64,000 nt of DNA, taken from the NCBI GenBank assembly GCA_017989135.1, contig JAGNQL010000002.1:1385-65384 (forward strand). Reading direction: 5' to 3'. The translations under genes were made by a program, and so were the position numbers. Below are positions 7,670 through 57,039 of this stretch, piece by piece (within the stretch, counting starts at the first letter, position 1; every line of letters begins with the position of its first letter). This DNA comes from Burkholderiales bacterium (GTDB taxonomy: Bacteria > Pseudomonadota > Gammaproteobacteria > Burkholderiales > Casimicrobiaceae). The notes below the pieces were generated by a model, which searched no databases, was not told the DNA's origin, and saw nothing but the letters and a program-made list of their open reading frames with translations.

Positions 7670-7796
7670 GTTATGGCTTTTGCCCGCTATCGACTGCCCT
7701 GTGGTGTTTTTGCACTATTTTTTTCATTAAATCGACTTTATTAAAATAATGCTTCTAACGACCGTACGTCGGTCATTAGAAGCATAAAGCTGTATC
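7670..7796. repeat. ~126-bp palindromic intergenic element, copy A
   Basis: gttatggcttttg...cataaagctgtatc; aligns end to end with the reverse complement of 25668-25793; internal 15/16-bp hairpin at 7749-7785. Confidence 0.8.
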
Positions 7797-8008
7797 GTGG
7801 CAAGCGCGAAAACCGCGCGCCAAAATGACGCGAAATGGCGTGGGCGCTGGTAAAATCGAGGGTTACCCTCATATAGCTTGCCTATTAGAAGCGCGGCGCC
7901 GAGTATGTCCGATTTGGCGATCAAACTGCGTTTCTAGTCGACGTCGTCACGCATCTTTCTGCCAGGTTCACGATCCCCGTGGTCCTTTGTGCACTGGAAA
8001 TTTGAAGC

Positions 8009-10915
8009 ATGGTTAAAGCCAAATCAAAACCCGCCGCAAAAGTTAGCAAAACAGCGAAAGCAAAACCGGCCGTAAAAGCCCGTGTTGCAGCCAAACCTGT
8101 CGCCCTGACAAAAGCCGGCAAGGCAAAGCCCGCGAAACCCCAAGCGAAAGCCGCCAAGGTTGCGCCGAAGTCGAAAGCCGTTGTGAAGAGTAAACCTGCG
8201 TCAAAAACAAAACCTGCTGCGAAAGCCAAGCCTGCCAACAAACCTTCAGCGAAGGCGGCAGTGAAATCTAGCGCGAAGAAAGCAGCAGTTGTCAAAGCAA
8301 AGCCCACAGCGAAGGCAAAAAGTGCCAAGCCCGCAGCAAAAAGCGTGACAAAGCCCGCAGGCAAAACCACCTCCAAAGTTGCGACCAAGGTCGTTGCCAA
8401 GGCAAAAGCAACCGGCAAACCAGCCGCCAAGCCCGCGGGCAAAGCAGCGAGCAAGCCCGTTGCAAAAACTGCTGCAAAAGCAGGCGCCAAGGCTCCCGCC
8501 AAAGCGGTGAAAGTGGTTGCGAAAGCCGTGGTGAAAACCCCGGCTAAAGCAGCCGCCAAACCTGTCGCAAAACCCGTATCAAAGCCGGTTGCCCAGCCCG
8601 CCGCTAAATCCAGTTCGACCTCATCGAAGGCGCCAGCGGCCAAGGCCGTTGTCAGTGCGCCAAAAGCAGCGGCGCCCACCAAGGGCACCAGCAAACCATC
8701 CGAAAAGGCCGTTATTAAGTCCACTCATCCTGTCGCGGCCAAGCCGGTCGAGACCAAACCTTCCAAGCCCTCTAAACGTGACGGAGCTGACAAGCCCGTG
8801 GCCGCTGCCCCCGTTGCAGCGCCAGCCAAAGCCGCAGCCCCTGCAGTCGTAGTCAAAACCGGCAAACCCGGTCGTCCTCCGAAAAATGCGGTTGACGCCG
8901 CACCCGCCGTGGTCGCCGACGTTACCGACGCAACGGGTGCCGTGGTTGACGACGCAACGGCCGCGCCGATTGCAATCAACCCGCTGACCGGTAAGCCAAA
9001 GACGCGCAAGCAACTGCTGCTCGAAAAGAAACAGGAAGCGCTCCTGAAAGCGCTCGCGCCGTTCAAAACGGTTGATGCCGAAACCCGTCGTCTGCGCCTC
9101 AAAACGCTGATTACGCTCGGTAAAGATCGTGGTTACCTGACGTACTCCGAGATTAACGATCACCTGCCAGACGACTTGGTGGACGCAGAGTCCATCGAAG
9201 GCATCGTTGCGATGATCAACGACATGGGTATTCAGGTGTTCGATGAAGCGCCTGCTGCCGAAGAGTTGATCATTTCCGAAACCGCGTCGGCCGTTGCCGA
9301 CGATGACGTCGCTGAAGAAGCCGAGCGCGCGATTTCGCAGCTCGACAGCGAATTCGGTCGCACCACCGATCCCGTGCGTATGTACATGCGCGAAATGGGT
9401 ACGGTGGAGCTTCTGACGCGTGAAGGCGAGATCGAAATCGCCAAGCGCATCGAAGACGGCCTCAAGCACATGGTGCAAGCGATTTCCGCGTGCCCAATGA
9501 CCATCGCCGACATTCTGCTCTTGGCCGACAAGATCGAAAAAGGCGAGGCCATCGCTGACGACATCGTCGACGGTATCGCCGGTCTTGAGCCGCCAGAGCC
9601 CGCGCCTGCGCCCGCTCCGAGCGATCAAGACGGCGACGAAGAAGCCGAAGAGGAAGAAGAAGACGAAGAGGCCACCGCGGCCCTCTCCGCCGAACTTCTC
9701 GCCAAACTCAAAGCGCTCTCGCTCGAAAAATTCGGCACGATTCGTAAGAACTACGCCAAGGTACTCGCCCATATCGAAAAGGACGAATACAAGAGCGAAG
9801 GCTACGTAAAAGCACAGAAAAAGATCACCGAAGAGATGACCGACATTCGCTTCGCCGCGAAGATCGTCGAGCAGCTCTGTGACTCCGTGCGTTCGCAAGT
9901 CGATCGTATTCGCGGTCATGAGCGCAAGCTGCAAGAGCTCTTGGTTTTCAAATGCCAAATGCCACGCGATCATTTCCTCAAAATGTTCCCCGACAAGGCC
10001 ATGGACCTGACGTGGATCGACAAAGAAATCGCTGCTGGCAAGCCGTACAGCGAAGTGATGGCAAAGAATCGCCAAGCACTGGTTGAGCGCCAAGAAGCGT
10101 TGCTGGATCTGCAAAAGAAAGTGCAACTTCCGCTGCAAGACTTCAAAGACATTTACAAGCAAATGTCCTCTGGCGAAGCCAAGTCGCGCAAGGCGAAAAA
10201 AGAAATGACCGAGGCCAACTTGCGCCTCGTGATTTCGATCGCCAAGAAGTACACCAACCGCGGCTTGCAGTTCCTCGACCTGATTCAAGAGGGCAACATC
10301 GGCCTAATGAAAGCCGTCGACAAGTTCGAATATCGTCGCGGCTACAAGTTCTCGACCTACGCCACGTGGTGGATTCGTCAGGCCATCACCCGTTCTATCG
10401 CCGATCAAGCGCGCACCATCCGTATCCCGGTGCACATGATCGAAACGATCAACAAGATGAACCGCATCTCGCGCCAAATCTTGCAAGAAACGGGTATCGA
10501 GCCCGATGCGCCCACCCTCGCCGCGCGCATGGAAATCCCCGAGGACAAGATCCGCCGCATCATGAAGATCAGCAAAGAGCCGATCTCTATGGAAACGCCA
10601 ATTGGCGACGACGACGACAGCCATCTGGGTGACTTCATCGAAGACACGCTCACGCTGACGCCGATGGACGCCGCCGTGCAAGACAGCCTCCGCGACCTGT
10701 GCAAAGAAGTGCTCGACACCCTCACGCCACGCGAAGCCAAAGTGCTGCGCATGCGCTTCGGCATCGAGATGAACACTGACCACACGCTCGAAGAAGTCGG
10801 CAAACAATTTGACGTCACGCGCGAGCGCATCCGTCAGATCGAAGCCAAAGCCCTACGCAAACTGCGCCACCCAAGCCGCGCAGAACGCCTCAAAGGCTTC
10901 GTCACTGAAGCGTAA
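8009..10915 (+). CDS. rpoD: RNA polymerase primary sigma factor RpoD with ~350-aa Lys/Ala/Pro-rich N-terminal extension
   Basis: Region 1.1 ([17 protein letters not shown]), 1.2 ([13 protein letters not shown]), region 2 ([40 protein letters not shown]), region 4 ([20 protein letters not shown]). Confidence 0.97.
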
Positions 10916-10932
10916 GTTGCGGCGACGCAAAC

Positions 10933-10964
10933 GACAAACGGGCCTTCGGGCCCGTTTGTCATTT
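10933..10964 (+). terminator. Stem-loop after rpoD (probable intrinsic terminator)
   Basis: Perfect 12-bp stem gacaaacgggcc-ttcg-ggcccgtttgtc followed by a short attt tail. Confidence 0.7.
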
Positions 10965-11001
10965 CTACGAGAGCCCAATGCCTGCGCGCACCTCTCGCTC
11001 C

Positions 11002-11030
11002 GTTCGTGGTGACCTTGTCGAACCATGAAC
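11002..11030. repeat. Bulged hairpin repeat (GTTCGTGGTGAnCnTGTCGAACCATGAAC family)
   Basis: Related, reverse-oriented copies at 36981-37097; a related core at 26531-26549. Confidence 0.6.
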
Positions 11031-11080
11031 ATGCACGCACGTGGCTGGGCGCGTGATCGAATGCGATAATTAAAGCTAGT

Positions 11081-11157
11081 GGGCCGTTAGCTCAGTTGGT
11101 TAGAGCAGAGGACTCATAATCCTTTGGTCGTAGGTTCAAGTCCTACACGGCCTACCA
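11081..11157 (+). tRNA. tRNA with CAT anticodon, most likely tRNA-Ile2 (lysidine-modified)
   Basis: 77-nt cloverleaf GGGCCGTTAGCTCAGTTGGTTAGAGCAGAGGACT-CAT-AATCCTTTGGTCGTAGGTTCAAGTCCTACACGGCCTACCA with encoded CCA; lacks the initiator GGG/CCC anticodon stem; position after rpoD is typical. Confidence 0.92.
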
Positions 11158-11262
11158 CTCCCTCTTTGCGCTCGTCGATAGCGTTCACCAACTTGGCCCC
11201 GCCGTGGGACAAATTTGGGCCGCTTGCAGCGAGACAACGCATCTCGCTATCAGCGCAAGACT

Positions 11263-11289
11263 GTCATTCCCGCGAATGCGGGAATCCAG
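11263..11289. repeat. ATTCCC-N8-GGGAAT palindrome (dRS3/RPE-like)
   Basis: gtcattcccgcgaatgcgggaatccag; related paired arms at 21743-21842. Confidence 0.75.
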
Positions 11290-11361
11290 ACCGATAACGA
11301 ACTTTCCCCCACGCTTTCTATCGGCCGCAGCGCACAACTACACGCACAAACCCCTTGCGTA

Positions 11362-11421
11362 AATTGATATTTACGTCAATAATTTGCCAATCTAAGCAGT
11401 ATTTTGACGTAAATATCAATT
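11362..11421. promoter_or_regulatory. Probable autoregulatory operator pair of the HipBA-like operon
   Basis: Perfect 18-bp inverted repeat aattgatatttacgtcaa (11362-11379) / ttgacgtaaatatcaatt (11404-11421); each half contains TTGA-N8-TCAA; the second overlaps the start codon. Confidence 0.75.
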
Positions 11422-11683
11422 GCAAACCCTTCAAGAACTAGGTCAAGCCGTAGCATCGCGTCGCCAAGCCCTCGGCTTACAGCAAGGCGTTGTGGCAGAG
11501 CGGGCGGGCATCACCGCCGAAACCCTCTCGCGCTTCGAACGCGGGCGTACGGCCGAATTCGGCGCGCGCAAACTGCTCGCCGTGCTCGCTGTGTTGGGCA
11601 TGGAACTAGACCTTGCCACCGCCGGACAATCCGGCACGCTCGACGAACTACGCCGCGAACGTAACGGTGCGGGGAGCGCGTGA
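11420..11683 (+). CDS. HipB-like XRE helix-turn-helix antitoxin
   Basis: LGQAVASRRQALGLQQGVVAERAGITAETLSRFERG; 4-bp overlap with the HipA-like gene; TTG start. Confidence 0.85.
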   Translation: MQTLQELGQAVASRRQALGLQQGVVAERAGITAETLSRFERGRTAEFGARKLLAVLAVLGMELDLATAGQSGTLDELRRERNGAGSA

Positions 11684-13002
11684 AGCTCGCCGTCTACGTG
11701 CTCGGTCGTGAGGTCGCCATCCTGGAACAAGCGGGCGACTTCAAAAGCGTATTGACCTACCACGCGCACACCGCGCCGGACGACTTCGTGTCGCTCACCA
11801 TGCCCGTGCGCACCCAGTCGTACGTGTGGGACGACCAGTTGCCGCCCGTCCTGCAAATGAACTTGCCCGAGGGCTATTTGTTGCAAGTGCTGCAAGAGCA
11901 ATTCGGGCCACATGTTGGTGCGAGTCCCATCGCCCTGCTCTCTGTTATCGGTCGCAACATGGTCGGCCGCATACAAGTCGCCGCGCCCAGCGCAACGCTA
12001 AGCGAGCCCGCAAACGCGATCGAAGTATCCGCACTGCTGCGAGGTGACAACTCCGAAGAAGCCTTCGCAGAACTCGTTCGCCAACACGCCACTAGCGGCG
12101 TCTCCGGCGTCGTACCGAAATTTCTCGACGCACAGAACGAACCGCCTGCGGGTTTCAAAAAAATCAGCGTCATCACGCGACGCCACATCATCAAAGGCTC
12201 GAGCCACGCGCTGCCCTTCATTGCGCTCAACGAACATCTCTGCATGCAGGTCGCAGCACGCGTCACGCCGACCGCCAAGACGGAAGTGTCCGAAGACGGT
12301 CAAGCGCTGGTTGTGCATCGGTTCGACGTGAACGACGACGGACAACCACTGCGCGGCATGGAAGATTTTTGCTCGCTGCTTGGCTTGCGTCCAGCGGCCA
12401 AATACAACACAACGTGGGAGCGCATCGCCCGCGCCGTGCGCGATCATGTGCCGGGTGAGCGGCGCTTAGAAACCTATCGCCAACTCGCCACGACGCTGCT
12501 CTTGACCTACGCATTGCGCAACGCTGATTGCCATGCCAAAAATCTTGCGTTGCTCTATACGACACGAGCCGACGCGCAGCTCTCGCCCACCTACGACATG
12601 CTCACCACCGACGTCTACGCGGGCTATCAACACAACCCGCCGGGCATCGAATTCATGGGCAAAAAAACGTGGGCACCCGGAAAGAACCTGCAAAGATTCA
12701 TCGCCGCCACCTTCGGCATTCCCCCGCGCGAACAAACGCAAATCATCGAAGCCATCAGCAACGCGGTAGCCGACGTCGCGCCACAAGTTCGTCAAGCCAT
12801 GCAACAACACGTAGGCTTTGAAGACATAGGCAAACGCATGCTCATGGCGTGGGCCGAAGGCGTGCGCGGACTGCGCGACCAACGCACCTACGCACTCGGG
12901 GAATGGGTTGCGGGCGAAGCGTTTGAAAATTTCTCACTGCCACCGAAACTGAAAACTGAATCCTCTTCGATTGGACGTTCGCCACTCCTTGGTAAGCGCT
13001 AA
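11680..13002 (+). CDS. hipA: HipA-family serine/threonine kinase toxin
   Basis: N-terminal VSLTMP..LPEG, Gly-loop SGVSGVVPK, LVVHRFD, MEDFCSLLG, catalytic NADCHAKN, LSPTYD. Confidence 0.9.
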   Translation: MKLAVYVLGREVAILEQAGDFKSVLTYHAHTAPDDFVSLTMPVRTQSYVWDDQLPPVLQMNLPEGYLLQVLQEQFGPHVGASPIALLSVIGRNMVGRIQVAAPSATLSEPANAIEVSALLRGDNSEEAFAELVRQHATSGVSGVVPKFLDAQNEPPAGFKKISVITRRHIIKGSSHALPFIALNEHLCMQVAARVTPTAKTEVSEDGQALVVHRFDVNDDGQPLRGMEDFCSLLGLRPAAKYNTTWERIARAVRDHVPGERRLETYRQLATTLLLTYALRNADCHAKNLALLYTTRADAQLSPTYDMLTTDVYAGYQHNPPGIEFMGKKTWAPGKNLQRFIAATFGIPPREQTQIIEAISNAVADVAPQVRQAMQQHVGFEDIGKRMLMAWAEGVRGLRDQRTYALGEWVAGEAFENFSLPPKLKTESSSIGRSPLLGKR

Positions 13003-13178
13003 AACGTTCTTAATGGAATCAAAACGGAAAGCAATGACTATGTCCCCTGCGGACCTGCTCGATGATCGCGCCTACCTCCTCACGCACTTCGGGCCCATGT
13101 ACATCGAAGCTAGAAGATTCCGTTGCTCCGCTGGCCTGCTCAACGACCAATTGACATCTGAAAAAGCGAGGAGGAATC

Positions 13179-14450: not shown

Positions 14451-14549
14451 ATTGCCCTAAACCGCAAGGCCTCTGATTCAAACCCACTGCAACTAGTCTG
14501 AATGCTCAGTTGCCTTCGTGTGACTATCGCTCGCGGCAACGTACGTGGT

Positions 14550-14705
14550 AGCCATGCAACGTGGGCAGCCCTCTGCCCGCCAGTCAGTTGTGTCCTGTAA
14601 CTACTGCGGTGGGGGTACCGGGCCCACCGTCCCCGGCTGATGATGTAACGACCATGAACTGCTTTGCCAGCAACCCATCCGTCTCTGCGGGGCACCTCCC
14701 CTAGT
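14550..14705 (-). other. Structured non-coding remnant, possibly an IS110-family left end
   Basis: Hairpins gggcag/ctgccc (14563-14578) and cggtggg/cccaccg (14607-14629); family resemblance recalled from memory only; no transposase follows. Confidence 0.35.
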
Positions 14706-16922: not shown

Positions 16923-17048
16923 TTAACAGCTTTTCCGCGCTATCGACCAGTGGGTGGTCGTTTCAAGGTCATTTTTCTAATTATCGATAATTGATAAAAA
17001 GCGAGCGCCAGCACCGCCTGGCTGTCGCTTGTCATAAAAAGCTATTAC
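16923..17048. repeat. ~126-bp palindromic intergenic element, copy B
   Basis: ttaacagcttttccgcgctatcgacc...aattatcgataatt...gtcgcttgtcataaaaagctattac; perfect 14-bp central palindrome. Confidence 0.8.
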
Positions 17049-23755: not shown

Positions 23756-25546
23756 ATGAAGCGACTGCTACTGACCTGCGCGGCCATCGTCTCGCTGGCA
23801 CTGCCCGTGTTGCCGGTACAGGCTACGGATATGAACAAAACCGTGCGTGTTGCGTTCCAAGTGGACGTGACCGGTTTTGATCCACAAGCAACAAATGATC
23901 TCTACTCAGCGCACGTCAACAACGCGCTGTTTGGCAACTTGTTCGAGTTTGATTACTACGTGCGTCCTGTACGACTTCGCGGAATGCTCGCCGAGTCCTT
24001 GCCGGAAATTTCCAGCGACGGATTGGTTTGGAAAATTCGCTTGCACAAGGGACTCTACTTTGCGGACGACCCGGTCTTCAAGGGCAAGAAACGCGAAGTG
24101 ATCGCACAAGACTTGGTCTACTCCTGGAAGCGGATGCTTGACCCAAAGATCATCTCGCCGAACTTGTGGCACATCGATGGCAAGGTCGTTGGGATGGACG
24201 AAGTCGTCGCCGACGCGAAAAAGACCGGCAAATTTGACTACGATCGTCCGGTCGCGGGTTTGAAGGCGTTGGATCGGTACACCGTGCAACTCACGCTCAA
24301 ACAGCCTGATTACACACTGACCGAATTAATGCAGCAATACAACTGGTCGCCGGTTGCGCGTGAAGCGATCGAGGCTTACCGGGATGCGGGCGGCCGCACG
24401 ATGAACAACCCGGTTGGCGCCGGCCCTTATCTCATTAAGCAATGGGTCAAGGGCAACAAAGTGATCCTCACGAAGAACCCAAATTACTCGCAAAAGTATT
24501 CGCTGACAGACGGGGAAACAGCAGAAGACAAAGCGGTCATCGCGCGCAACCAAGGCAAAGACTTACCCTTGGTTGGCAACGTGGAAATCAGCATCATCGA
24601 AGAGGCGAACCCACGATTGCTGACCTTCAAATCCGGCGCGCTCGACTACGAATTCGTCGGCCAAGATTTGATTGGCAACGTAGTGCAGGGCGGAAAACTA
24701 TTGCCGGAGTATTCAGAAAAAAACATTCGCCATCAGAGAGCGATGGATCCAGCGCTGGCATACGATTACTTCAACTTGGAAGACCCGATGGTCGGCGGCC
24801 TCACGCCTGATCGCATCGCGCTGCGCCGCGCGATCATCCTCTCGTTTCCCACCGATGACTACGTGCGCGTGGTCTTTCGCAACCAAGCCGAGCCCGCCAA
24901 TCAAGTCATCCCGCCGACGCAGACCGGCCACGTGGCAAACAAGCCGAATCTAAATAAGCAGGACGTGCAGATGGCCAACGCGCTGCTCGACAAGTTTGGC
25001 TACAAAGACGTTGACGGCGACGGCTTCCGCGAGATGCCCGACGGCAAGCCGCTCACCATCACGCGCTCCTCCACGCCGCGCGCGATTGACCGTGAAACTG
25101 ACGAACTCTGGAAGAAGGCGCTCGACTCGATCAAGATCAAGATTCAATACAACAATCAGAAATGGCCAGACTTGCTGAAGCAAGGTCGCGCCGGTCAACT
25201 CCAGTTCTGGGGTCTGGGTTGGATCTCACAAGCGACCGACGGCAATTCGTTCGTACAGTTGCTCTACAGCAAGAATATCGGTCAGTCGAACTTCGCGCGC
25301 CTCAACATGAAGCAGTACGACGACCTCTACGAACAGGCGCAGAAACTTCCGCTTGGGCCGAAGCGTTGGGCGCTGTACAAAGCGATGAACGAACTCGCAA
25401 CCGTACATTCGGTTTGGCATCCCGGTGTGTTCCGGTATCAAAACGTGCTGATGCAGCCGTGGCTCTCGAACTACAAACGCAATCCCTTCCGCCAACACTT
25501 TTGGCACCTCATGGACATCGACGAAACAAAACGGCCGAAGTCTTAA
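23756..25546 (+). CDS. ABC transporter substrate-binding protein, family 5 (paralogue of the upstream gene)
   Basis: Signal peptide; GFDPQ, REVIAQDLVYSWKR, PVGAGPY, IALRRAI, DVDGDGFRE. Confidence 0.9.
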   Translation: MKRLLLTCAAIVSLALPVLPVQATDMNKTVRVAFQVDVTGFDPQATNDLYSAHVNNALFGNLFEFDYYVRPVRLRGMLAESLPEISSDGLVWKIRLHKGLYFADDPVFKGKKREVIAQDLVYSWKRMLDPKIISPNLWHIDGKVVGMDEVVADAKKTGKFDYDRPVAGLKALDRYTVQLTLKQPDYTLTELMQQYNWSPVAREAIEAYRDAGGRTMNNPVGAGPYLIKQWVKGNKVILTKNPNYSQKYSLTDGETAEDKAVIARNQGKDLPLVGNVEISIIEEANPRLLTFKSGALDYEFVGQDLIGNVVQGGKLLPEYSEKNIRHQRAMDPALAYDYFNLEDPMVGGLTPDRIALRRAIILSFPTDDYVRVVFRNQAEPANQVIPPTQTGHVANKPNLNKQDVQMANALLDKFGYKDVDGDGFREMPDGKPLTITRSSTPRAIDRETDELWKKALDSIKIKIQYNNQKWPDLLKQGRAGQLQFWGLGWISQATDGNSFVQLLYSKNIGQSNFARLNMKQYDDLYEQAQKLPLGPKRWALYKAMNELATVHSVWHPGVFRYQNVLMQPWLSNYKRNPFRQHFWHLMDIDETKRPKS

Positions 25547-25581
25547 CTTCATGAGAATGTGATTTGCGTCGGAGTAACGTT

Positions 25582-25641
25582 GTAGGCGCGGACTCGGCCG
25601 CGCTTACCCGGCGCACTGAGCGGTGCCAAGTCGTCGCCCAC
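25582..25641. repeat. GTAG-type REP heterodoublet
   Basis: gtaggcgcggactcggccgcgct...ccaagtcgtcgcccac. Confidence 0.8.
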
Positions 25642-25667
25642 CCGTTAGGTCTTACCGGGGACGTTCC

Positions 25668-25793
25668 GGTACAGCTTTTTTGCGCTAGCGACCGCCAGGT
25701 GGTCGTTAGCGGGGCATTTTGCAGTTAGTCAATTACCGAGATAAATGACCTGAAATATCCACCCAGCAGTCGTTAGCGGCCAAAAGCCATTAC
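25668..25793. repeat. ~126-bp palindromic intergenic element, copy C
   Basis: ggtacagcttttttgcgctagcgaccgccaggtggtcgttagcg...cagtcgttagcggccaaaagccattac. Confidence 0.8.
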
Positions 25794-25840
25794 CGTCATA
25801 GGCCGGGTTGCAACCCCGGCCTACAACGCGCCCGCCAACG

Positions 25841-26314
25841 CTACGCCCGCTCCGGCAACGGCAACGCACCTGAAAATTTGCTACGCAGCGTAGAGAACCG
25901 TGCACGCACGTTCCGGACATTGTTTGCCGCTGTGAAGAGCCGCTGCACGAGCGCGTGGTACGCGGGCATGTCGCGCACAGTGAGCACCAGCGTGAAATCC
26001 ACGCTGGGCGCGGTGCGGTAAACCTGCGTCACGGCGGGCTCGGCGGCGAGGAGCCGGTCAAACGCGTCGAACGACTCCGCGTTTTGCACATCCAGCGTGA
26101 TTTCCACTATCGCCGTGATCGACGCGTCGAGTTTTTCCGGCGACAGGATCGCCACTGTGCGCTCAATCACGCCCGCCTCTGTCATGGCCCGAACGCGTCG
26201 CATCGCGGTCGCGGGCGACGTGAACACCTGCTCGGCTAACGCTTGATTGGCGATGGCTGCATCCTGTTGAAGGATCGCGAGGATTCGTAAGTCGAGGTCG
26301 TCGAGTGCGTTCAT
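25841..26314 (-). CDS. Lrp/AsnC family transcriptional regulator
   Basis: [36 protein letters not shown]...GVI; divergent from glmS. Confidence 0.92.
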
Positions 26315-30509: not shown

Positions 30510-30635
30510 GTTACAGCTTTATGGCGCGAACGACCATTATGCGGTCGTTTCCGCTTGTTTTTCGCATTTGTTGACTTAGTGCCGAAAGTTCCTGAAACAA
30601 CCGCAGGGCAGTCGTTGCGCGCATAAAGCTGCTAC
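30510..30635. repeat. ~126-bp palindromic intergenic element, copy D
   Basis: gttacagctttatggcgcgaacgacc...cagtcgttgcgcgcataaagctgctac; the two arms remain alignable over ~55 bp. Confidence 0.82.
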
Positions 30636-30774: not shown

Positions 30775-33700
30775 TTACGAGCTGAAGTACTTATCGCGTC
30801 GGTTGTCGAAGGCAGGGGTCGTTCCCTCAAGCACATCAAGTACCGCACGGTTGAGCTCAGAGCTTTCAATGGCTCCCGAGGAATATGTGAGCGCGAACTG
30901 ATCGCCTCGATTAAATTCCGCGTGGATGATCTGCTCAGCATCACAGCAGACTGCCAAGTTCGCATTGTGCGTGACCATGATAATTTGGCGGCGCTCTTTG
31001 GCTCGCCGAATGATGGGAACAAGCATCGAGTACACCGTTTGGTTATCCAAGTTTTCCTCAGGTTGATCCAAGATGACTGGTGTTGGGTCAGAGTCAACCA
31101 AAAGGTAAAAGATGAGCAGCAGTGCGCCACGTTGCCCGGGGGACATCTGCTGAATGCTGGTGCCCGCCAGGCTCAGCGAAAATTTTGCCTCAACCTGACG
31201 AAGCTCAAAGAGGAGCTCATACAGCTGTTCTGAAGTCACTTTTGTCCGTAGGATAGGCAGGAGCGCAGCTGGGCTCCCATCAGCACCAGTGATTGCGGCT
31301 CGAATAGCGCGAAGTCCAGTCGTAACGCTGTCAGACCTGTTGAAGTCGATAGCTCGCAGCATATTGACAAGCTTGACCTGCCCCTCCTCGTCGCCCCTGA
31401 ATCCACCTGTGCTTTGTTTCACCAAAGAAAAAAACTTCTCGGTAAAAGCTTGTCGGTCAAAGAACAATGCGCTTTGGAATCCCACTTTGAGCTCGGTCGC
31501 TACACCGGGCACAGCGGCAACTAACTGCTCCACCGCGGCGAAGAGAGAACGACGCGATTCCGCGATACTGGTCAGCTCTGAGTGAATTTTCTTCGCTAAT
31601 TCGTCCTGTTGTACCTCTAGTGCTTTGCAGTGCGAGGGTAGTTGCGCCAGCTCGGCAAGTCGTGCCTCATAGAAACCTATCGTCTCTGCCTCGTCGGGCT
31701 GACCAACCAGAGCGTTTACTGCTTTCTCCCAAGCCGCCAAGCCAACGACAAAGTCTTGGTAAAGTTTGTTAGGCAGGTCCAGACGCTCCTGCCGTTGCGT
31801 CCGTTCTAGGACCAGAGCCCCATGTCTGTCGGCGCCCTCCTGCTGTTTTGTCGCGAGTTCGACCAGCGCATGCTCGGTAGCGCCGCGGACATCCAGAAGT
31901 ACTGAATGCTGAGTTTGTACTTTCACGACGTCGTCGAGTTTCACATCGACAGTCTTCAGTTCCGTGAGAAGACTCTCGTTGACCCGGGCCGCTTGTTGTT
32001 CGAAAGCAGCCAAGCGTTCAGCAACACTCGTTAACACCGTTCTCCGCTCGACTAACAGTCTTCTGGTTGCATTCGCAGTTGCTGATGCAGCATCCAACTT
32101 CGCCAAGTCCTGCGCAATCTCAATCAGTCTCAGGCCGTCGGCAGTAGACGGCGCTCCCACATCATCTTGAGGCTTCGGGACTTCTGCCGGTCTTTTTGCC
32201 CGGAGGTCTCCGAGCTCCAGCTTCTTGGAAGCCAGTTTTTCTTTGAGCTCATTCTCGTGAGCAATCCCTGACTGACGCTCAAGTTCCGCAAGTTGACTGT
32301 TGACGTGGCGTAGTTCTTTTCTGAGCTCATCTATCCGCTCTTGAGCGGGTCTTTCCTTCGCGGCCAAGTATTCATCCAGATTCTGATGGCTGCCGCGGTC
32401 TGCTTGGTCCAGATGAGAAAAAAGCACCTTCCGAATTTCGGTGCTGAATCGATCAGATTTTCCCGTGACATGGTCGTTGCACAAATCCTCAAAATAAGTC
32501 TGAGAAATGTATTTGACTCGCTCCGGCTGCTGAGCTTCGGCCTGCTGGTCTAGGCTAACTGAACTTACATCGCCATTCCGCCAAGTCAGTTTGGCCACAA
32601 ATGCGCCCGCTCTCTGAATGCTCCCACTCTTGAAGCGACTGTCCACCAAAAAAGTAAAGAATTCGTGAGCCTTTGAATTCCCCGCAAGAGCAAGCACTTC
32701 TGCAAGCCCGCTCTTGCCAGAGCCCTTATTACCAATCACCGCTACAAGATCTGAATTCAGAGCGAGGTCAGTACCGCTAAACCACTTCTCGGTCGTTTTG
32801 GCGCCCGACTTCGCGGATATTTGCAACCGTTCCATAAACAGGCGGCCATTTGCTTCAACGAACGCGCGCTTCGGCGGTGTATCTCCGATGTACGAGCGGA
32901 ACACAGGCTCCTTGATTGCGTGTAAGAGTCCCTTGAACGTGGGCTCTGCCTTTATCCACGTCTTCATTCCGCTCGGGAATACGCCGTAGGCGCCGTGACT
33001 GTGGGCGTCTGTGCCGCGCACGCACAGTCGAGGTTTTCTGTCGAGCGAGTCAAAGAAGCTGTCAAAGTATTTCTCGTTCAGGTCACTGCGGACTCCATGA
33101 AACGCGAGACGATTGCCCTCATCTTTGCACTCAAAGATGTCAGCCGCCGTCCGCAAACGGCGTACTTCAGCGTAATGGGCGGCCCAGTCAATTTCTCTAA
33201 GCCCACCGTACGTATCCCATGGCATTAGCATGAGGCCCCAATCTCCCATTTGCTTGAGGGCCTCTCGGAGCGACTCTGCAGTAACCATTGCTGTTTGCCA
33301 ACCTACCTGCAACGCGTATTCATGGTCATTGGCTACGCGCTTAGCATCAAAGTTGTCTTTGTCGAGGCGGTCCCTGCCAAGTTCACGTGAATGTTGAACT
33401 AGCCAGTGTTCACTCAAAGTGTGATCACCGTCCTTCAGGTTGATCTTAAGTGTCGCCAAAATGTCAGTCAAAACTTGGCGCGGGACTTCTGGGTCCAAAA
33501 CCAGATGCACATTCAAGCGCTGCTTCAATGAGCTCTCTACACGCAACTCAATCCCTGGAAACACCGTTTTTCCAGCAAGAGAGCCAAGGTTTTTTCTCTC
33601 ATATTCGGCGATCGCCAAATATCCGTCAAACGTCCAGTAATCCATGATGACGAAAACTTCTGGGCTTGCCTTCGCAATTGCAGCTACGGTCTGTGCTATC

Positions 33701-33828
33701 AGTTCCGTTCTTGCTACGTCATCTAAACCTCGTAGTTTTTGACCACTCCACTGGTAAGAGGCTGGTGTATGACAGTGAAAGTCCCACAGCCGCCAAATCG
33801 ATCCTTCAGGTGTTCGCGTTTTGCTCAT
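30775..33828 (-). CDS. PHP phosphoesterase-ABC/SMC-like ATPase fusion (TrlF-family / Ppl-like defence protein)
   Basis: PHP motifs WDFHCHTPAS, MDY, FPGIELR, GTDAH; Walker A GNKGSGKS, coiled coil, signature MSPGQRG, Walker B VILDQPEENLD, VTHN; lower GC than flanks. Confidence 0.88.
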   Translation of the reverse strand: MSKTRTPEGSIWRLWDFHCHTPASYQWSGQKLRGLDDVARTELIAQTVAAIAKASPEVFVIMDYWTFDGYLAIAEYERKNLGSLAGKTVFPGIELRVESSLKQRLNVHLVLDPEVPRQVLTDILATLKINLKDGDHTLSEHWLVQHSRELGRDRLDKDNFDAKRVANDHEYALQVGWQTAMVTAESLREALKQMGDWGLMLMPWDTYGGLREIDWAAHYAEVRRLRTAADIFECKDEGNRLAFHGVRSDLNEKYFDSFFDSLDRKPRLCVRGTDAHSHGAYGVFPSGMKTWIKAEPTFKGLLHAIKEPVFRSYIGDTPPKRAFVEANGRLFMERLQISAKSGAKTTEKWFSGTDLALNSDLVAVIGNKGSGKSGLAEVLALAGNSKAHEFFTFLVDSRFKSGSIQRAGAFVAKLTWRNGDVSSVSLDQQAEAQQPERVKYISQTYFEDLCNDHVTGKSDRFSTEIRKVLFSHLDQADRGSHQNLDEYLAAKERPAQERIDELRKELRHVNSQLAELERQSGIAHENELKEKLASKKLELGDLRAKRPAEVPKPQDDVGAPSTADGLRLIEIAQDLAKLDAASATANATRRLLVERRTVLTSVAERLAAFEQQAARVNESLLTELKTVDVKLDDVVKVQTQHSVLLDVRGATEHALVELATKQQEGADRHGALVLERTQRQERLDLPNKLYQDFVVGLAAWEKAVNALVGQPDEAETIGFYEARLAELAQLPSHCKALEVQQDELAKKIHSELTSIAESRRSLFAAVEQLVAAVPGVATELKVGFQSALFFDRQAFTEKFFSLVKQSTGGFRGDEEGQVKLVNMLRAIDFNRSDSVTTGLRAIRAAITGADGSPAALLPILRTKVTSEQLYELLFELRQVEAKFSLSLAGTSIQQMSPGQRGALLLIFYLLVDSDPTPVILDQPEENLDNQTVYSMLVPIIRRAKERRQIIMVTHNANLAVCCDAEQIIHAEFNRGDQFALTYSSGAIESSELNRAVLDVLEGTTPAFDNRRDKYFSS

Positions 33829-51444: not shown

Positions 51445-51466
51445 GAGATTGCGCCTGCGTCGCCTT

Positions 51467-51550
51467 ATTCGCTAATATGTTAGCAATATATTCCTGCCGT
51501 GCTTCGCGTGTCAAGCGTGCCGACCGAACCGCGCAAATTCGCTAATATGT
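51467..51550. promoter_or_regulatory. Two probable HpaR operators
   Basis: 14-bp direct repeat attcgctaatatgt at 51467 and 51537; the first extends to the palindrome GCTAA-N4-TTAGC. Confidence 0.65.
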
Positions 51551-51572
51551 GACCGTTCTCACGTGTCGAACT

Positions 51573-52034
51573 ATGACCAAACCAAGCGCACCGATCACAC
51601 ACCGCAATTTGCCGCTCTTGCTGTTGCAAGCGCGCGAGCATGTGATCTCGCGCTTTCGGCCGATTCTCAATGCGCACGACATCACTGAACAGCAGTGGCG
51701 CATTGTGCGCGCGATCTTGGAGCGCGGGCCGATGGAGCCGCGCGAAATCGTAACGTTGTGTTGCATTTCGAGCCCGAGCCTCGCGGGCGTGCTCACGCGC
51801 ATGGAGGAAACTGGCTACGTGATGCGCGAGCGTTTGTCGCACGATCAACGCCGCGTGAAGGTCTCGCTCACCGCAAAGAGCCGCGCGCTTGCCACGCGCA
51901 TCGCGCCGAAAATCGAAGCCGCGTATGCGGACCTCGAGGCGCAAATCGGCCCCGAATTTTCTGGGCAGTTTTACGACGCGCTGGATCGGATGATTGCGAC
52001 GCTTCAGATCGAGGGCGGCGACAGCGAAGCATGA
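51573..52034 (+). CDS. hpaR: MarR-family homoprotocatechuate pathway repressor
   Basis: HRNLPLLLLQARE..FRPIL...ITEQQWRI, SPSLAGVLTRME, DQRR; divergent from the hpa operon. Confidence 0.9.
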   Translation: MTKPSAPITHRNLPLLLLQAREHVISRFRPILNAHDITEQQWRIVRAILERGPMEPREIVTLCCISSPSLAGVLTRMEETGYVMRERLSHDQRRVKVSLTAKSRALATRIAPKIEAAYADLEAQIGPEFSGQFYDALDRMIATLQIEGGDSEA

Positions 52035-52048
52035 ACTGCGGAGGCGAG

Positions 52049-52843
52049 CTACAGCTCACCAATTGACTGGCGCAATCGCTTCGCCAATTCCATCAACGGC
52101 TCACGCAATCGTGCCACAACCTCGTTCGGTTCGCCGTCGCCAGTGACGCTCATATTTAGGACGTAAACCGATTGGTTTTCAGCGACGAGTGGCGTGGATA
52201 GCGCCACCACCTGCGGTTGCCATGAGGCCCAGCAATAACCGTGCACAGCGACACTTTCGATCGCCGCCTCGATCTCCTGTTGTAGCGACCGCCACGTCGT
52301 TGGACGCCGTTGCTTGAACACTCGGAAAAGTTCACGTCGCACCTCAACAGAGGCGGTGGACAGCCACGCGCGCCCGAGCGAGGTCAGTTCCATCGGCACG
52401 CGCTGACCGGCGACCACGTTGCGCCACGAAACGCGGCGACTGTAGCGCACTGATTCCAGATAGACCATTTCGCCGCGATCCGCAACTGCGAGGCCGACGT
52501 TGATCTTTCTCGCTTCCGCTTCCTTTCGAATCAGCGGGCTCGCGATTTGCAGCACTGGCGAGCCTGTGCGCATCGCATGCGCGAGACTCAACACCGGCGC
52601 GGCCAAGCGGTAGGCGCGGTGCCGCCGATCGTGCTCAAGCATGCCCGCATCAACGAGCGTCTGCGCTAATCGGCTCACCGTTGCACGGGATAGACCGGTG
52701 CGTTCCGCCAATTCGCCGTTACCTAATAAATCAGCACCGGGCTTGAACGCACGCAGGACCTCAATACCACGCGCAAGCGAACGATTGCGATCGCTTGTCA
52801 CTGGTGTGTTCTCTAGTTTTGCTGTGCGCACGCTGACCACCAT
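52049..52843 (-). CDS. IclR family regulator
   Basis: NRSLARGIEVLRAF, ELAERTGLSRATVSRL, MVYLES, TSLGRAWL. Confidence 0.9.
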   Translation of the reverse strand: MVVSVRTAKLENTPVTSDRNRSLARGIEVLRAFKPGADLLGNGELAERTGLSRATVSRLAQTLVDAGMLEHDRRHRAYRLAAPVLSLAHAMRTGSPVLQIASPLIRKEAEARKINVGLAVADRGEMVYLESVRYSRRVSWRNVVAGQRVPMELTSLGRAWLSTASVEVRRELFRVFKQRRPTTWRSLQQEIEAAIESVAVHGYCWASWQPQVVALSTPLVAENQSVYVLNMSVTGDGEPNEVVARLREPLMELAKRLRQSIGEL

Positions 52844-52873
52844 AGTTCGCAATTCAGTAGACGTCCTCGCCCG

Positions 52874-52896
52874 CTATTTCCACCTGATGGAAATAG
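52874..52896. promoter_or_regulatory. Probable IclR operator
   Basis: Perfect inverted repeat CTATTTCCA-N5-TGGAAATAG in the divergent promoter region. Confidence 0.7.
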
Positions 52897-53004
52897 GTGG
52901 ATGCATGGCGCAAGTATGCACCCTATGCTCCGGAGATCAAAGTGACGCGTTTTCCGATGTAACAACGCAAGCGCTCACCATTCAAGACACTCAGGAGGCA
53001 ATGC

Positions 53005-53985
53005 ATGTCACACCCATTTAGGCAAACAGTCGTCCACCGAGTCTGGCTCGCACTGGCGCTCACACTATCACTATCGACGCTCGCGCACGCTGACTTTCCA
53101 GACAAACCCGTTCGCCTCATCGTGCCATTCGCACCGGGCGGCGGCACCGACCTCATCGCGCGCACGTTGGCCGGGGGCATGCAGCAAGCGCTCGGGCAGC
53201 CCGTGATCGTAGAGAACAAGCCCGGCGGCGGCACGGTCATCGGCAGCGATATGGTGGCGAAAAGCGCCCCCGATGGTTACACGTTGGTTGTAGCGACGTT
53301 CGCGCACGCTGTGAATCCAAACCTGCTGCAAAAGCTTCCGTTCGACACCAGCAAGGCGTTTGCCCCCGTGATTCTTTTGGGTCGCGGTCCAAACGTGTTG
53401 GTGGTGCGCGCCGAAAGCCCGTACAAGAGCGTGAACGATGTGATCATCGCGGCGAAAGCTAATCCTGGAAAATTGACCTACGCGTCGCAAGGGAAAGGCA
53501 CGTCCGCGCACCTAGCTGGCGAGATGTTTGCCAATCTTGCGAAGGTTGAAATGCTCCACATCCCCTACCGCGGCGCGGGTCCAGCGATCACCGATCTGCT
53601 GGGCGGATCGGTGGATATGATCTTCGGCACCGCTGCCGCTGTCTCAACATTTGTGGACGCGGGTAAGCTACGCGCGCTCGGGGTTACATCGCCGCAGCCT
53701 TCACCGGCGCTTAAAGGCGTGCCCGCGATTGCCGACACTGTACCCGGCTATCAGACTGAGAGCTGGTACGGCCTCTACGCCCCGGCTGGCACGCCGAAAG
53801 ACGTGATCGCGAAGCTCAATGCAGCGGCAGCGAAGGCCACGCAAAGCGCTGATTTCCGAAAGAAGGTTGAGCAAGAAGGTCTTGTGATTAGCGCCGGAAC
53901 ACCTGCGGAATTGGACACATACGTTCGCGCAGAAGAAGTGCGCTGGAAGAAAATCATCAAAGAAAACAACATCAAGGCCGATTAA
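53005..53985 (+). CDS. Bug/TctC substrate-binding protein
   Basis: FPDKPVRLIVPFAPGGGTD, ENKPGGG, HIPYRG. Confidence 0.92.
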   Translation: MSHPFRQTVVHRVWLALALTLSLSTLAHADFPDKPVRLIVPFAPGGGTDLIARTLAGGMQQALGQPVIVENKPGGGTVIGSDMVAKSAPDGYTLVVATFAHAVNPNLLQKLPFDTSKAFAPVILLGRGPNVLVVRAESPYKSVNDVIIAAKANPGKLTYASQGKGTSAHLAGEMFANLAKVEMLHIPYRGAGPAITDLLGGSVDMIFGTAAAVSTFVDAGKLRALGVTSPQPSPALKGVPAIADTVPGYQTESWYGLYAPAGTPKDVIAKLNAAAAKATQSADFRKKVEQEGLVISAGTPAELDTYVRAEEVRWKKIIKENNIKAD

Positions 53986-54009
53986 GACGCGCGCTTCGCG
54001 GAGTTACCC

Positions 54010-54801
54010 ATGACCTATTCATTGATCGACTTTCAGCTACAAAACGCAATCGCCACGATAACGCTCAACCGCCCCGAAAAGCGAAATGCGATGAGCGACG
54101 ATATGCGTACCGAATTCATCGATGCGTTGGAGCGTGTCGCTGCAGACAAAACGATACGCGCACTCGTTCTCACCGGCGCTGGCAAGGGCTTTTGCGCAGG
54201 TGGCGACATCTCCGGAATGGAGCGTCGTCTCACAGCGCCCACGGGCGAAGTCGCCTTCAACGGGTGGCATCGCCAACAGCGAGTACACCATACGCAATCT
54301 CTGTTGCACACAATGCCGAAGCCTGTCATCGCCGCAGTGAACGGTGCAGCTTCCGGACTCGGCGCCGACACCGCGCTGGCCTGCGATTTCATCATCGCAA
54401 GCGAATGGGCCAGCTTCACTTGGTCATACATTCATCGAGGGATCATTCCCGATGGCGGCGGCATGTATTTTCTGCCGCGTCGAGTGGGACTTTCAAAAGC
54501 GAAAGAGTTAATTTTTTCGGGCCGCAAAGTGGATGCAGCGGAGGCCCTTGCGCTAGGTATCGCCGACCGCAAAACTTCAGCCGATTCGCTATCGGCGGAC
54601 GCTCAAGCGTGGGCCGCGGAGCTGAGCCAAGGCTCGGCCACAGCACTTGCCTTGAGCAAAACAATCATGAACCAGACCTTCGAGATGACGGCGCAGCAAG
54701 TCTTCGCGCAAGGCAGCCAGGCCCAGGGCATTTGCTACACAAGCAGCGAACACCGGCAATCGGTCGAGGCTTTCCTCGCCAAAGCCGCAAAGCAGGCTTA
54801 A
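54010..54801 (+). CDS. Enoyl-CoA hydratase/isomerase (crotonase) family protein
   Basis: ITLNRPEKRNA, FCAGGDI, KPVIAAVNG, GIIPDGGG. Confidence 0.92.
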   Translation: MTYSLIDFQLQNAIATITLNRPEKRNAMSDDMRTEFIDALERVAADKTIRALVLTGAGKGFCAGGDISGMERRLTAPTGEVAFNGWHRQQRVHHTQSLLHTMPKPVIAAVNGAASGLGADTALACDFIIASEWASFTWSYIHRGIIPDGGGMYFLPRRVGLSKAKELIFSGRKVDAAEALALGIADRKTSADSLSADAQAWAAELSQGSATALALSKTIMNQTFEMTAQQVFAQGSQAQGICYTSSEHRQSVEAFLAKAAKQA

Positions 54802-54806
54802 TCACT

Positions 54807-56891
54807 ATGGATGCGATATCAAGGCTTTTGAAGCCACGCAGCGTTGCCATCATCGGTGCATCGGCGGACGCGGCGAAGACGTCAGGGCGACCTGTTTCTT
54901 ATTTAGTCAAACATGGCTTTGCAGGTGCAATTTATCCGGTGAATCCGAAGGTAAATCGCATCGGCGAATTGACCTGTTATCCCGACATCAAATCGTTGCC
55001 CACGGTGCCGGATGTAGCCATTGTGTTGCTCGCCGCGGAGCGCGCGCATCTGGAGGTGCGTGAACTCGCGGCACTAGGCACGGCAGCGGCCATCGTGTTG
55101 GCAAGCGGATACGCGGAGACTGACGAAAGCGGCGCGCAACGACAAAGAGAGCTGCTAGAAGCGGCCGGACCAATGCGCTTGCTTGGTCCGAACACAATTG
55201 GTTTGGTGAACCTGACCGACGACATTGTGCTGTCCGCAAGCGGCGCGCTCGACATGGCGCACTTTCGCGCCGGTTCTGTGGGCGTGGTGTCGCAAAGTGG
55301 CGGCATTCTTGGAGCGTTGCTTTCACGCGCCGAAGCGCGAGGCATGGGGCTCTCCAAACTCATTTCGACGAGCAATGAGGCAGACCTAGAACTCGCGGAC
55401 TTCATCGATTACTTGGTAGACGATGAAGCAACGAAAGTGATTGCGCTCTACGTCGAAGCGATCCGCAATCCGACAAAGTTTCGCGCGGCAACGTTGCGCG
55501 CGGCGCGTGCGGCGAAACCTGTTGTCGCGTTCAAGATCGGCCGCTCCGAAGCGGGCGCCAAGGCTGCGGTTTCGCATACAGGGGCGATGGCTGGCGCGGA
55601 TCGAATGTACGACGCGCTGTTTCGACAAACGGGCGTCATCCGCGCGCAAACCTTCGGTGACTTGCTAGACGTTCCTGCAGCGTTGGCCACGGCACGCACG
55701 CTACGCGGTAAGCGTGTGGCTGTTCTCACGTCGACCGGAGGCGCGGGCACGCTGGTGTCTGACGCCATCGGCGTGGCCGGGTTCGACACGCCCGCGCCGG
55801 ACGCTGAGACAGCGGCAGCGTTACGTGCGCTACAAACAGGCGAGCACGCCGCGCTTGACCGCAACCCGATTGACGTCACCCTCGCCGGTCTGCAGCCGGA
55901 TTTACTGCGTGGTGCCATCAAAATTTTGCTCGCGAGTCCGACCTACGATGCGCTCATCATTATCGTTGGCTCGTCGGGCATCGGACGCCCTGAGTTGATG
56001 GCGGGCGCAATTGAAGCCTGTCTACCACTCTCTGACAAGCCAGTGCTCGCGTTCGTGAGCCCGCACGCGCCGGAAGCCGCCGCACTGCTCACGGCGCGTG
56101 GCGTTCCCGCGTACACCGCGGCGGAGAGCTGCGCGTCGGCGTTGACGGGCATGTTGCACGCGTCAAACTGGGCCGCATCTGAAGCGGGTACGCCCGGCGC
56201 AGTCGTTACGGTCGGTGATCTGCCCGGAGGTTCGCTCGACGAAGCGCAGGCGAAACAATTGTTCGCACATTTCGGCATCCCTTGCGTGCACGAGCACGTC
56301 GTGGAGACTTCGCTCCAAGCCGAGCTTGTCGCCAGAGAGTTTGGCGGCAACGTTGTGCTGAAAATATTGTCGAACACGATCACGCACAAGAGCGATGTAG
56401 GCGGCGTCGCAGTCAATGTTGCGAGCGAACGCATCGGCGCGCGCCTCGCAACGATGGTGACCGACGTTGAGCGCGCAACAGGGGAACGACCAACCCGATT
56501 TCTCGTGCAAGAAATGGTCACTGACGGCACCGAACTAATCCTCGGCATGCACCGTGATCCGCTCGGCACAGCGATTCTCTTGGGGATGGGCGGCGTTACT
56601 GCGGAATTGTTTGAGGACACGGCGCTTTGCATGTTGCCGACCGAAGGCGGCCTGTCGCGTGAACAAGCGCTCGGAATGGCGCGCAGTCTCAAAACCTGGC
56701 CGCTGCTCGATGGCTTCCGCGGCCGCCCAAAGGCGGACGTGGATGCGCTGGTTCACGCCATCGTGGACTTTTCGCGGATGGTTGCGCAGCTCGGCGACAC
56801 GTTAATTGAAGCGGAAATCAATCCCATCTTCGTTCTGGAAAACGGACGGGGCGTGCGCGCGGCGGACGGTGTCGCCATGCTCAACGGCTAA
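54807..56891 (+). CDS. Acetate/acyl-CoA ligase (ADP-forming) family protein
   Basis: Start at ATG 54807; PRSVAIIGAS, LGPNTIG, SQSGG, AVSHTGA (phospho-His), NPIDVT, HKSDVGGV, EINP. Confidence 0.92.
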   Translation: MDAISRLLKPRSVAIIGASADAAKTSGRPVSYLVKHGFAGAIYPVNPKVNRIGELTCYPDIKSLPTVPDVAIVLLAAERAHLEVRELAALGTAAAIVLASGYAETDESGAQRQRELLEAAGPMRLLGPNTIGLVNLTDDIVLSASGALDMAHFRAGSVGVVSQSGGILGALLSRAEARGMGLSKLISTSNEADLELADFIDYLVDDEATKVIALYVEAIRNPTKFRAATLRAARAAKPVVAFKIGRSEAGAKAAVSHTGAMAGADRMYDALFRQTGVIRAQTFGDLLDVPAALATARTLRGKRVAVLTSTGGAGTLVSDAIGVAGFDTPAPDAETAAALRALQTGEHAALDRNPIDVTLAGLQPDLLRGAIKILLASPTYDALIIIVGSSGIGRPELMAGAIEACLPLSDKPVLAFVSPHAPEAAALLTARGVPAYTAAESCASALTGMLHASNWAASEAGTPGAVVTVGDLPGGSLDEAQAKQLFAHFGIPCVHEHVVETSLQAELVAREFGGNVVLKILSNTITHKSDVGGVAVNVASERIGARLATMVTDVERATGERPTRFLVQEMVTDGTELILGMHRDPLGTAILLGMGGVTAELFEDTALCMLPTEGGLSREQALGMARSLKTWPLLDGFRGRPKADVDALVHAIVDFSRMVAQLGDTLIEAEINPIFVLENGRGVRAADGVAMLNG

Positions 56892-56914
56892 TCTCAACGC
56901 AACCGCGTGACGTA

Positions 56915-57039
56915 GTTTCAGCTTTTGCGCCCAGCGACCGTCTAACGAAGCTTTGCGGCCAATATTGCGATGTGTCGAGATACATAGTTTTGTTGGTATA
57001 ACGCCCGCCACGCAGTCGTTTGACGCATAAAGCTGTTAC
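56915..57039. repeat. ~126-bp palindromic intergenic element, copy E
   Basis: gtttcagcttttgcgcccagcgaccg...atgtgtcgagatacat...cagtcgtttgacgcataaagctgttac. Confidence 0.75.

Follow-up and report, generated by a model that had tools for sequence, protein, structure and literature searches.

A selection-maintained, evenly spaced 126-bp dyad element of Casimicrobium genomes, proposed as a docking site for a chromosome-organising protein complex

Five copies of a dyad-symmetric intergenic element lie in the window considered here, a 64,000-nucleotide stretch of DNA from a Burkholderiales bacterium of the family Casimicrobiaceae (GenBank assembly GCA_017989135.1, contig JAGNQL010000002.1, positions 1,385 to 65,384). 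We read this element, with moderate confidence and from comparative sequence analysis, as a double-stranded, helically phased docking site of a symmetric protein complex that would organise the chromosome in units of about 10 kb. A preliminary description, made from the letters of the window alone, had offered three readings, namely an old mobile family, a fixed-geometry substrate of a multi-site protein or recombinase, and a structured RNA; among these, the multi-site protein substrate was the one supported, because length was held with a whole-turn tolerance, key bases were under selection and no covariation was found.

Geometry of the element and the question of RNA structure

The copies in the window are located as follows:

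7670..7796, no strand: copy A, 127 bp, between the divergent genes for an RND adaptor and rpoD
16923..17048, no strand: copy B, 126 bp, in a convergent gap between the genes for an AraC-type regulator and alkaline phosphatase
25668..25793, no strand: copy C, 126 bp, in a convergent gap between ABC-binding-protein and Lrp-type genes
30510..30635, no strand: copy D, 126 bp, in a convergent gap, adjoining a TrlF-type ATPase gene
56915..57039, no strand: copy E, 125 bp, in a tandem gap between acyl-CoA ligase and gamma-glutamyltransferase genes

The coordinates, lengths, intergenic position, dyad symmetry and TCGA, TCAA or TTGA centres of these copies were as the preliminary description had given them, and the centre of copy B was indeed a perfect palindrome. 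A profile built from the five copies in both orientations and refined once (cut-off E<1e-3) retrieved 357 loci from the source genome (G000; 3.35 Mb, 80% complete), i.e., one per 9.4 kb, and none from the reversed genome, which bore out the prediction of many copies genome-wide; within the window, it matched the five copies only. The claim of a fixed length also held: 286 of the 328 full-length copies away from contig ends measured 126 bp, 21 measured 125 bp and 4 measured 127 bp, with rarer lengths of 136 bp (12 copies), 137 bp (one), 147 bp (three) and 100 bp (one), larger changes being almost only of +10, +11 or +21. A DNA contig matched positions 25463-25896 of the window, which span copy C, with zero differences.

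Using copy C as the example, the parts of the element are:

25672..25678, + strand: outer box of the left arm, YRRCTTT, with 99-100% invariance of the C and of the first T in G000
25687..25707, no strand: left 21-bp arm site, ANCGAC ... GGTCGTT in this lineage, with other invariant bases in other lineages
25716..25720, no strand: phased A/T tract, about 13 bp from the dyad
25727..25734, no strand: centre, W-R-T-Y-R-A-Y-W, whose T and A are 99% invariant; GTCGAC is the commonest form in the family
25754..25774, no strand: right 21-bp arm site
25783..25789, - strand: outer box of the right arm

Each half thus carries an outer box 53-59 bp from the dyad, an arm site at positions 20-40 and an A/T tract, and both share the centre WRTYRAYW, so that five boxes per element (outer, arm, centre, arm, outer) are kept in helical phase. 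The distances of the outer and arm boxes to the dyad were 57 and 44 in 465 of 656 arms. A spacing of +10 between these boxes was found in 8 arms (5 further ones with the arm box uncalled), +11 and +10 together in 3, and one base less in 21; in about 140 arms one box was uncalled, and there were a few single calls at other offsets. Length changes therefore sit between the boxes and are sized one base or one helical turn. A/T dinucleotides peaked 4, 13, 24, 43, 54 and 60 bp from the dyad, with a period of 9.9 but an R2 of only 0.38. Information faded across positions 1-3, the ends of the element not being sharp; these ends are mutual inverted copies, but as part of an imperfect dyad of the whole length.

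Two centre-less short forms were seen, at G000:C176:1131 and G000:C155:2638 (outer-arm-outer and a 100-bp outer-arm-arm-outer), and are probably deletions between arm sites. Half copies that stop a few bases from the centre were also seen, at G000 loci C82:32446, C4:13461, C284:11648, C269:1404, C239:754 and C287:1995, and may reflect misassembly or breakage at the centre.

With regard to function at the RNA level, the element could be a bidirectional terminator or an mRNA-stabilising hairpin at gene ends, in line with the position of the copies near stop codons (median 35 bp) and far from starts (median 135 bp), and with a lax scan in which a hairpin plus a U-run was present within 87 of 268 copy orientations. 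However, the apparent covariation reported in the preliminary description did not hold up over the 286 copies of 126 bp: complementarity at every mirror position and the Watson-Crick rate of the arm-hairpin pairs equalled the expectation from column frequencies, mutual information was found only between near neighbours, and the longer stem of copy A was unique to that copy. The two arms of one copy were no more alike (0.548) than random arms (0.548). Similarly, chimeric copies composed of a left arm and a foreign right arm folded about as well as real ones (-42.5 versus -43.8 kcal/mol, p 0.057), and the same applied to half-arm chimeras compared with real arm hairpins (p 0.25). Furthermore, the arm is not palindromic in some lineages, and neither a whole-turn length rule nor the even spacing described below is expected of an RNA. 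A search of Rfam at gathering threshold over the window returned one tRNA and no match at the element, while two RNA runs had low cover and no reads across the copy examined and were too thin to judge expression. The element is not a structured RNA, and we consider a terminator or hairpin role highly improbable.

Inheritance, selection and mobility

The element is vertically inherited and not currently mobile. Syntenic junctions in 800 kb of two relatives agreed in occupancy throughout (42/42 occupied and 86/86 empty; 0/128 discordant). Among 101 copies in loci of relatives, 49 had both flanks syntenic, and all 49 sites were occupied in G000, none in inverted orientation; the other 52 were unscorable by their flanks, several having one flank that lacks an adjoining copy in G000, which may reflect rearrangement or loss. 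At a greater distance, gene ends that adjoin a copy in genome G008 did so in G000 in 24 of 35 cases, compared with a background of 648 of 2222. At the Lrp-type gene end beside copy C, an element of the same geometry was present in most of 22 aligned genus genomes, even where the other neighbour had changed.

The key bases and the spacing of the element are held by selection, and its free positions drift neutrally. Low-information positions changed at the rate of fourfold-degenerate sites (0.137 versus 0.146, and 0.484 versus 0.385), whereas high-information positions changed at 0.031 and 0.074, i.e., four to five times more slowly. Length was equal in 36 of 42 orthologous copy pairs, and the other six differed by 1-2 bp.

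These data bear on the readings that involve mobility. Target duplications of 2-8 bp, sought at 13 boundary positions of about 330 copies, were not commoner than in shuffled pairs, and the two copy pairs of G000 that are more than 95% identical also share their flanks and are therefore segment duplications. The old mobile family put forward in the preliminary description, here compared with miniature inverted-repeat transposable elements of the ERIC/IRU type, was not supported in an active or merely decaying form: inverted ends are present, but there were no target duplications, no empty orthologous sites, no young mobile copies, and no gain or loss at the 128 junctions. The recombinase substrate fared no better. 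A site-specific recombination site was rejected with 0 inversions in the 49 orthologous pairs, hybrid copies that switch at varying positions without a fixed crossover point, and no excess of synteny breaks at copies (8/50 versus 34/120 elsewhere). XerC/D were the only tyrosine recombinases common to the three genus genomes examined, alignment rows read in a wrong frame being disregarded.

A different origin would be that an ancient transposon or Mu-like element left its ends behind as the copies, which spread once with target immunity, became domesticated and were later kept as useful, for example if bound ends shield the chromosome from the cognate transposon. Hundreds of dispersed copies require a copying mechanism, the multi-box arms look like multi-site transposon ends, and 27 copies share one offset at which they overlap a stop codon. 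Target immunity yields under-dispersed spacing, and the even spacing of the copies fits it. Nevertheless, no boundary tried had a target duplication, the ends are not sharp and few parts are as invariant as the dyad centre; pairwise copy identity (0.567 versus 0.563 for independent draws from the profile) indicated no subfamilies. No transposase flanked by element arms was found in G000 (80% complete), nor was any element match found in the viral contigs, plasmids and phages searched, and the 128 junctions showed neither gain nor loss. We regard this origin as unlikely.

Other insertions and neighbouring features were recorded alongside. At G000:C282:714-3464, an IS1595-type element with its own ends and an 8-bp duplication lies inside a copy, in the A/T tract, and copies in C59 and C186 are broken at a similar place by another repeated insert. 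The TrlF-type ATPase gene (window 30775-33828) abuts copy D, and a relative (L042) has two D copies and a duplicated gene end round different cargo. The RpoD frame at window 8009-10915 has 968 codons, and about 350 residues precede the family match.

Distribution, genomic context and even spacing

The distribution of the element was followed by a geometry-only pattern scan, the controls of which gave 0-7 hits in genus genomes. Twenty-six of 34 Casimicrobium genomes had 60-340 hits and the remaining eight had 1-26, while the 167 genomes that represent ten further genera of the family had 0-9 each, like their controls. In an order-wide scan (401 genomes; some 390 other), none outside the genus rose above 29 hits, which was near its control. 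G312 and G473 served solely as background in these scans and carry no claim. A de novo dyad scan and four profiles found nothing in 240 kb of two sister-genus genomes. A wider contig scan returned at least 93 loci; one planctomycete match failed the profile, and the deltaproteobacterial match among the matches listed was a short contig 96% alike to G000 DNA. Judged by these scans, the element family is confined to Casimicrobium.

Within the genus, the invariant bases of the arm differ by lineage at identical geometry, being ACGAC in G000, GGGCT in G008, and GCC plus GAAAT in G019. G008 had 36 copies in 460 kb and G019 had 42 in 390 kb, 40 of which measured 126 bp. Mixed arms occur in intermediate lineages, the arm motif changing stepwise, one half-site and then the other. 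On the complete G008 chromosome, the 100 matches listed were spread evenly over 2.8 of 4.5 Mb, with 58 in the rest.

A methylation-read mark was also considered, in which the adenine of the centre is methylated and, every 10 kb, a SeqA-like or repair protein recognises the hemimethylated state that follows replication. According to Table 3 of PMC13515534, 329 of the 332 AGTCGACT sites of the genus type strain carry N6-methyladenine, at position 6. This adenine is the invariant centre A of the element, and the octamer lies within copies at 142 of 164 strand hits in G000 and, over 460 kb of G008, at 23 of its 29 sites. However, only about one fifth of the G000 copies have the exact octamer, and it is absent from the 390 kb of G019 despite the 42 copies there. 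In addition, a search of three Pfam families revealed no methyltransferase common to the carriers; the G008 enzymes tested all lacked a G000 match, and one orphan enzyme was present in 3 of 34 genomes. Since the octamer is missing from the 390 kb of G019 and no shared methyltransferase was found, methylation is treated here as unexplained rather than central, and a methylation-read mark is very unlikely in our estimate. A description of the element was not found in the open-access literature on the genus, on this architecture or on the octamer.

With regard to gene context, 356 of the 357 loci lie outside genes predicted with our own gene caller. Among gaps measuring 120-1000 bp, 192 were convergent, 629 tandem and 280 divergent, and copies were present in 110, 155 and 54 of these, respectively. 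Such enrichment between convergent genes would suit strong DNA gyrase sites at places where positive supercoils build up, gyrase being the sole type II topoisomerase found (one gyrA and one gyrB and no parC/parE match in 5/5 genomes). Furthermore, the element resembles the 130-bp gyrase motif of E. coli, as given in PMC6379681, in length, symmetry and phased G+C, and the motif score rises at an offset of 5-6 bp (1.3 versus -4.1 for shuffled sequence). When aligned at the dyad, however, the copies scored -4.5 (shuffled -4.1, genome mean -1.5), their A/T maxima being shifted by about half a turn relative to that motif, and this was alike in G008 and G019. A gyrase site was rejected on the dyad score of this motif (-4.5, -5.4 and -8.2 in three lineages, at or below shuffled), the matrix being that of E. 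coli (PMC6379681, Table DS10), from which host preference may diverge. The element is also base-specific: its near-invariant bases imply direct readout, yet the GyrA C-terminal domain is 92-96% identical across the three arm-motif lineages. Moreover, two sister-genus genomes likewise lack topoisomerase IV and have no copies. Gyrase sites are thus, in our view, quite unlikely. The five genomes read for these genes (G000, G008, G019, G129 and G174; L201-L205), a closed one included, each have a single GyrA/ParC-type and a single GyrB/ParE-type gene, and on these sequences the family seems to lack topoisomerase IV.

The spacing of the copies was compared with a null in which they were redistributed at random over gene junctions of like type. 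In G000, 9% of gaps were shorter than 3 kb, compared with 26% expected (0/2000 shuffles), and the coefficient of variation of the gaps was 0.73 versus 0.87 expected (p 0.025). The corresponding values were 0.66 versus 0.90 in G047 (p 0.027), 0.54 versus 0.81 in G017 (p 0.008) and 0.42 versus 0.84 in G008 (p <0.0005), where 0 of 23 gaps fell below 3.9 kb. In five genomes that differ in arm motif, copies occurred at a density of one per 9-13 kb. Under-dispersion at constant density points to a function in the kilobase range, or to a trace of how the copies spread. Neither the even spacing nor the restriction to one genus had been anticipated in the preliminary description. The longest copy-free stretch, G000:C47:7911-53509 (45.6 kb), holds an integrase gene.

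The proposed docking role, related systems and a candidate binder

From geometry, conservation, spacing and gene context, we infer protein binding, bending and an architectural role. In the docking reading, a two-fold symmetric protein assembly would dock on one 126-bp module and bend or wrap its approximately 12 helical turns, and the docked sites would partition or anchor the chromosome in units of about 10 kb, acting as loop anchors or supercoil-domain boundaries. HU/IHF is not favoured as the explanation, as there are three ordinary genes, alike in carriers and non-carriers; compared by eye, the centre resembles the WATCAR half of an IHF site, and the TTR half is not conserved. With regard to a nucleosome-like site, a histone-fold search restricted to PF00808 found none in five genomes.

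By analogy, the role proposed would be most like that of matS, BIME-1 sites and HIP1, although the defining tests of each failed. Like matS, the element forms dispersed palindromic chromosomal sites with a putative architectural role. According to a review (PMC6907758), matS is 13 bp long, with 23 copies about 35 kb apart in Ter only, whereas the element has 126 bp, five boxes and hundreds of copies, spread along the G008 chromosome among the matches listed. Identity with matS was rejected, since the 13-bp GTGACRNYGTCAC is not in the element consensus and the copies are not confined to Ter.

BIME-1 (RIB) sites are described as two inverted palindromic units with a conserved IHF-binding linker, intergenic at gene ends and present in hundreds per genome, and have been proposed to be topological insulators (PMC3333891, PMC6907758). 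The element shares with these repetitive extragenic palindromic (REP) sequences the inverted units round a conserved linker, the intergenic location at gene ends and the copy number; it differs from them in having no GTAG foot, no selected base-paired stem and no tandem arrays, and in copies whose sequences are saturated although their length is fixed and their spacing even. This class was rejected because the first positions are unconserved and the arm hairpin has no covariation. Among 20 Y1_Tnp loci, four had one copy within 1.5 kb and none had copies on both sides. Separate, near-identical GTAG-type REP families are present at window 25580-25650 and genome-wide, with up to 45 copies of one 22-mer; G000 has five Y1 transposase genes, and one REP family also matches the promoter motif of the candidate described below.

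HIP1 of cyanobacteria is described as a periodic palindrome kept by selection, with no RNA role and a proposed nucleoid function (PMC5861425). The element is likewise a selected palindrome, periodic along the chromosome, but HIP1 has 8 bp, is far more frequent and also occurs within genes, whereas the element is long, modular and intergenic. Finally, CIR repeats of Caulobacter (about 110 bp, carrying a methylation site) and ERIC/IRU (about 127 bp), as reported in PMC2229807, resemble it in size, intergenic location and inverted-repeat build. They are described there as base-paired RNA stems with TA ends, and ERIC with target duplication and strain-level gains, none of which applies to the element.

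As a candidate binder, we considered a genus-restricted, 91-residue predicted ribbon-helix-helix (RHH) protein encoded at G000:C54:7524-7799 on the minus strand, which was found in 17 of 22 genus genomes and 0 of 89 genomes of other genera, and which 28 of 34 genus genomes carry as a single copy. No match was found in the three most divergent genus genomes, which had 8, 1 and 7 pattern hits, and 45 kb of one of them held no element copy. In the monomer model, a strand-helix-helix core is joined to a long C-terminal helix, with a predicted local distance difference test (pLDDT) value of 80. In the homodimer model, strand 31-35 is paired (score 0.53 versus 0.00 for the best control, pLDDT 68-69) and runs agreed in 98% of contacts. 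Of 30 solved homodimers, 20 attained the mark set, as did 1 of 23 single chains; since RHH is a textbook fold, this pass shows likeness. The best fold match was to residues 107-162 of MatP, which form its bridging module, an RHH plus coiled coil (Z 6.8, root-mean-square deviation 1.5 over 56 residues), although the candidate lacks the size of MatP and is unrelated in sequence (identity 12%). No significant sequence match was obtained in the PDB, and the only Pfam match was a weak one to VapB antitoxin (best E 0.00094). In front of the gene, a palindrome beside the -10 box was kept in 17/17 loci read and resembles the element centre; among 4096 half-sites compared with the centres, it ranked 26th in G000, 14th in G008 and 195th in G019. 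Downstream of the candidate gene (G000:C54:5990-7800 and L364-L380), another promoter is conserved; it carries a related motif and precedes short conserved frames.

On these models, the candidate might bind the element centre and bridge sites via its long C-terminal helix, a possibility that we take seriously without expecting it to hold. The lineage-specific arm sites would then need a second reader beside it. More tentative still, and rather doubtful, is a full Casimicrobium chromosome scaffold in which several hundred 126-bp sites would be bridged at the centre by this genus-specific, MatP-like RHH protein into fixed loops.

A number of observations weigh against the docking reading or the candidate. 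With regard to the sites, pattern hits numbered only 6-26 in five further genus genomes, and four weak copies were found in 140 kb of G004. The spacing null conditions on nothing beyond junction type, and G000, G017 and G047 share sites, so that there are about two independent spacing tests; moreover, the even spacing may have been left behind by an ancient transposon with target immunity. Codon scores were slightly lower for genes that end at a copy than for others (0.039 versus 0.051, a crude proxy), which argues against a link to strong transcription. Bridging by MatP itself, reported in vitro, is disputed in vivo according to one review (PMC6907758). As for the protein, it was chosen by eye among 85 G000 proteins (basic, soluble, low-copy, with distant genus matches) at partial genome coverage, and was not found in carriers G007, G043 and G012 (87-91% complete); the control Fis, by contrast, was present in 33 of 34 genomes. 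The three genomes that lack both element and candidate are the most divergent (Fis 60-65%), and this co-absence may therefore be one event. In the fold ranking, RHH antitoxins came next (Z 5.3-5.7), and 6.8 is in the range of common arrangements. The promoter palindrome matches weakly in G019, only 6 of the 29 top genome matches of the promoter motif are element centres, and the strand is invariant though arm motifs differ. The protein may simply regulate its adjacent locus.

What forms the small supercoil-domain barriers of bacterial chromosomes is listed as an open question in a review (PMC6907758). In model bacteria, such barriers are apparently random in position, whereas the array described here is fixed, evenly spaced and maintained by selection. 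Sequence-encoded barriers would be directly testable, given a named candidate protein and a genus type strain that is reported to be cultured and transformable (PMC13515534), and any other role would still leave the geometry and the spacing to be explained. The arm motif, which has turned over stepwise across hundreds of inherited sites, is also a clean case for the study of protein-site co-evolution. If the scaffold were true, the topological domains of a whole chromosome would be defined in a lineage with, it seems, no topoisomerase IV, and protein and sites would co-evolve across the genus.

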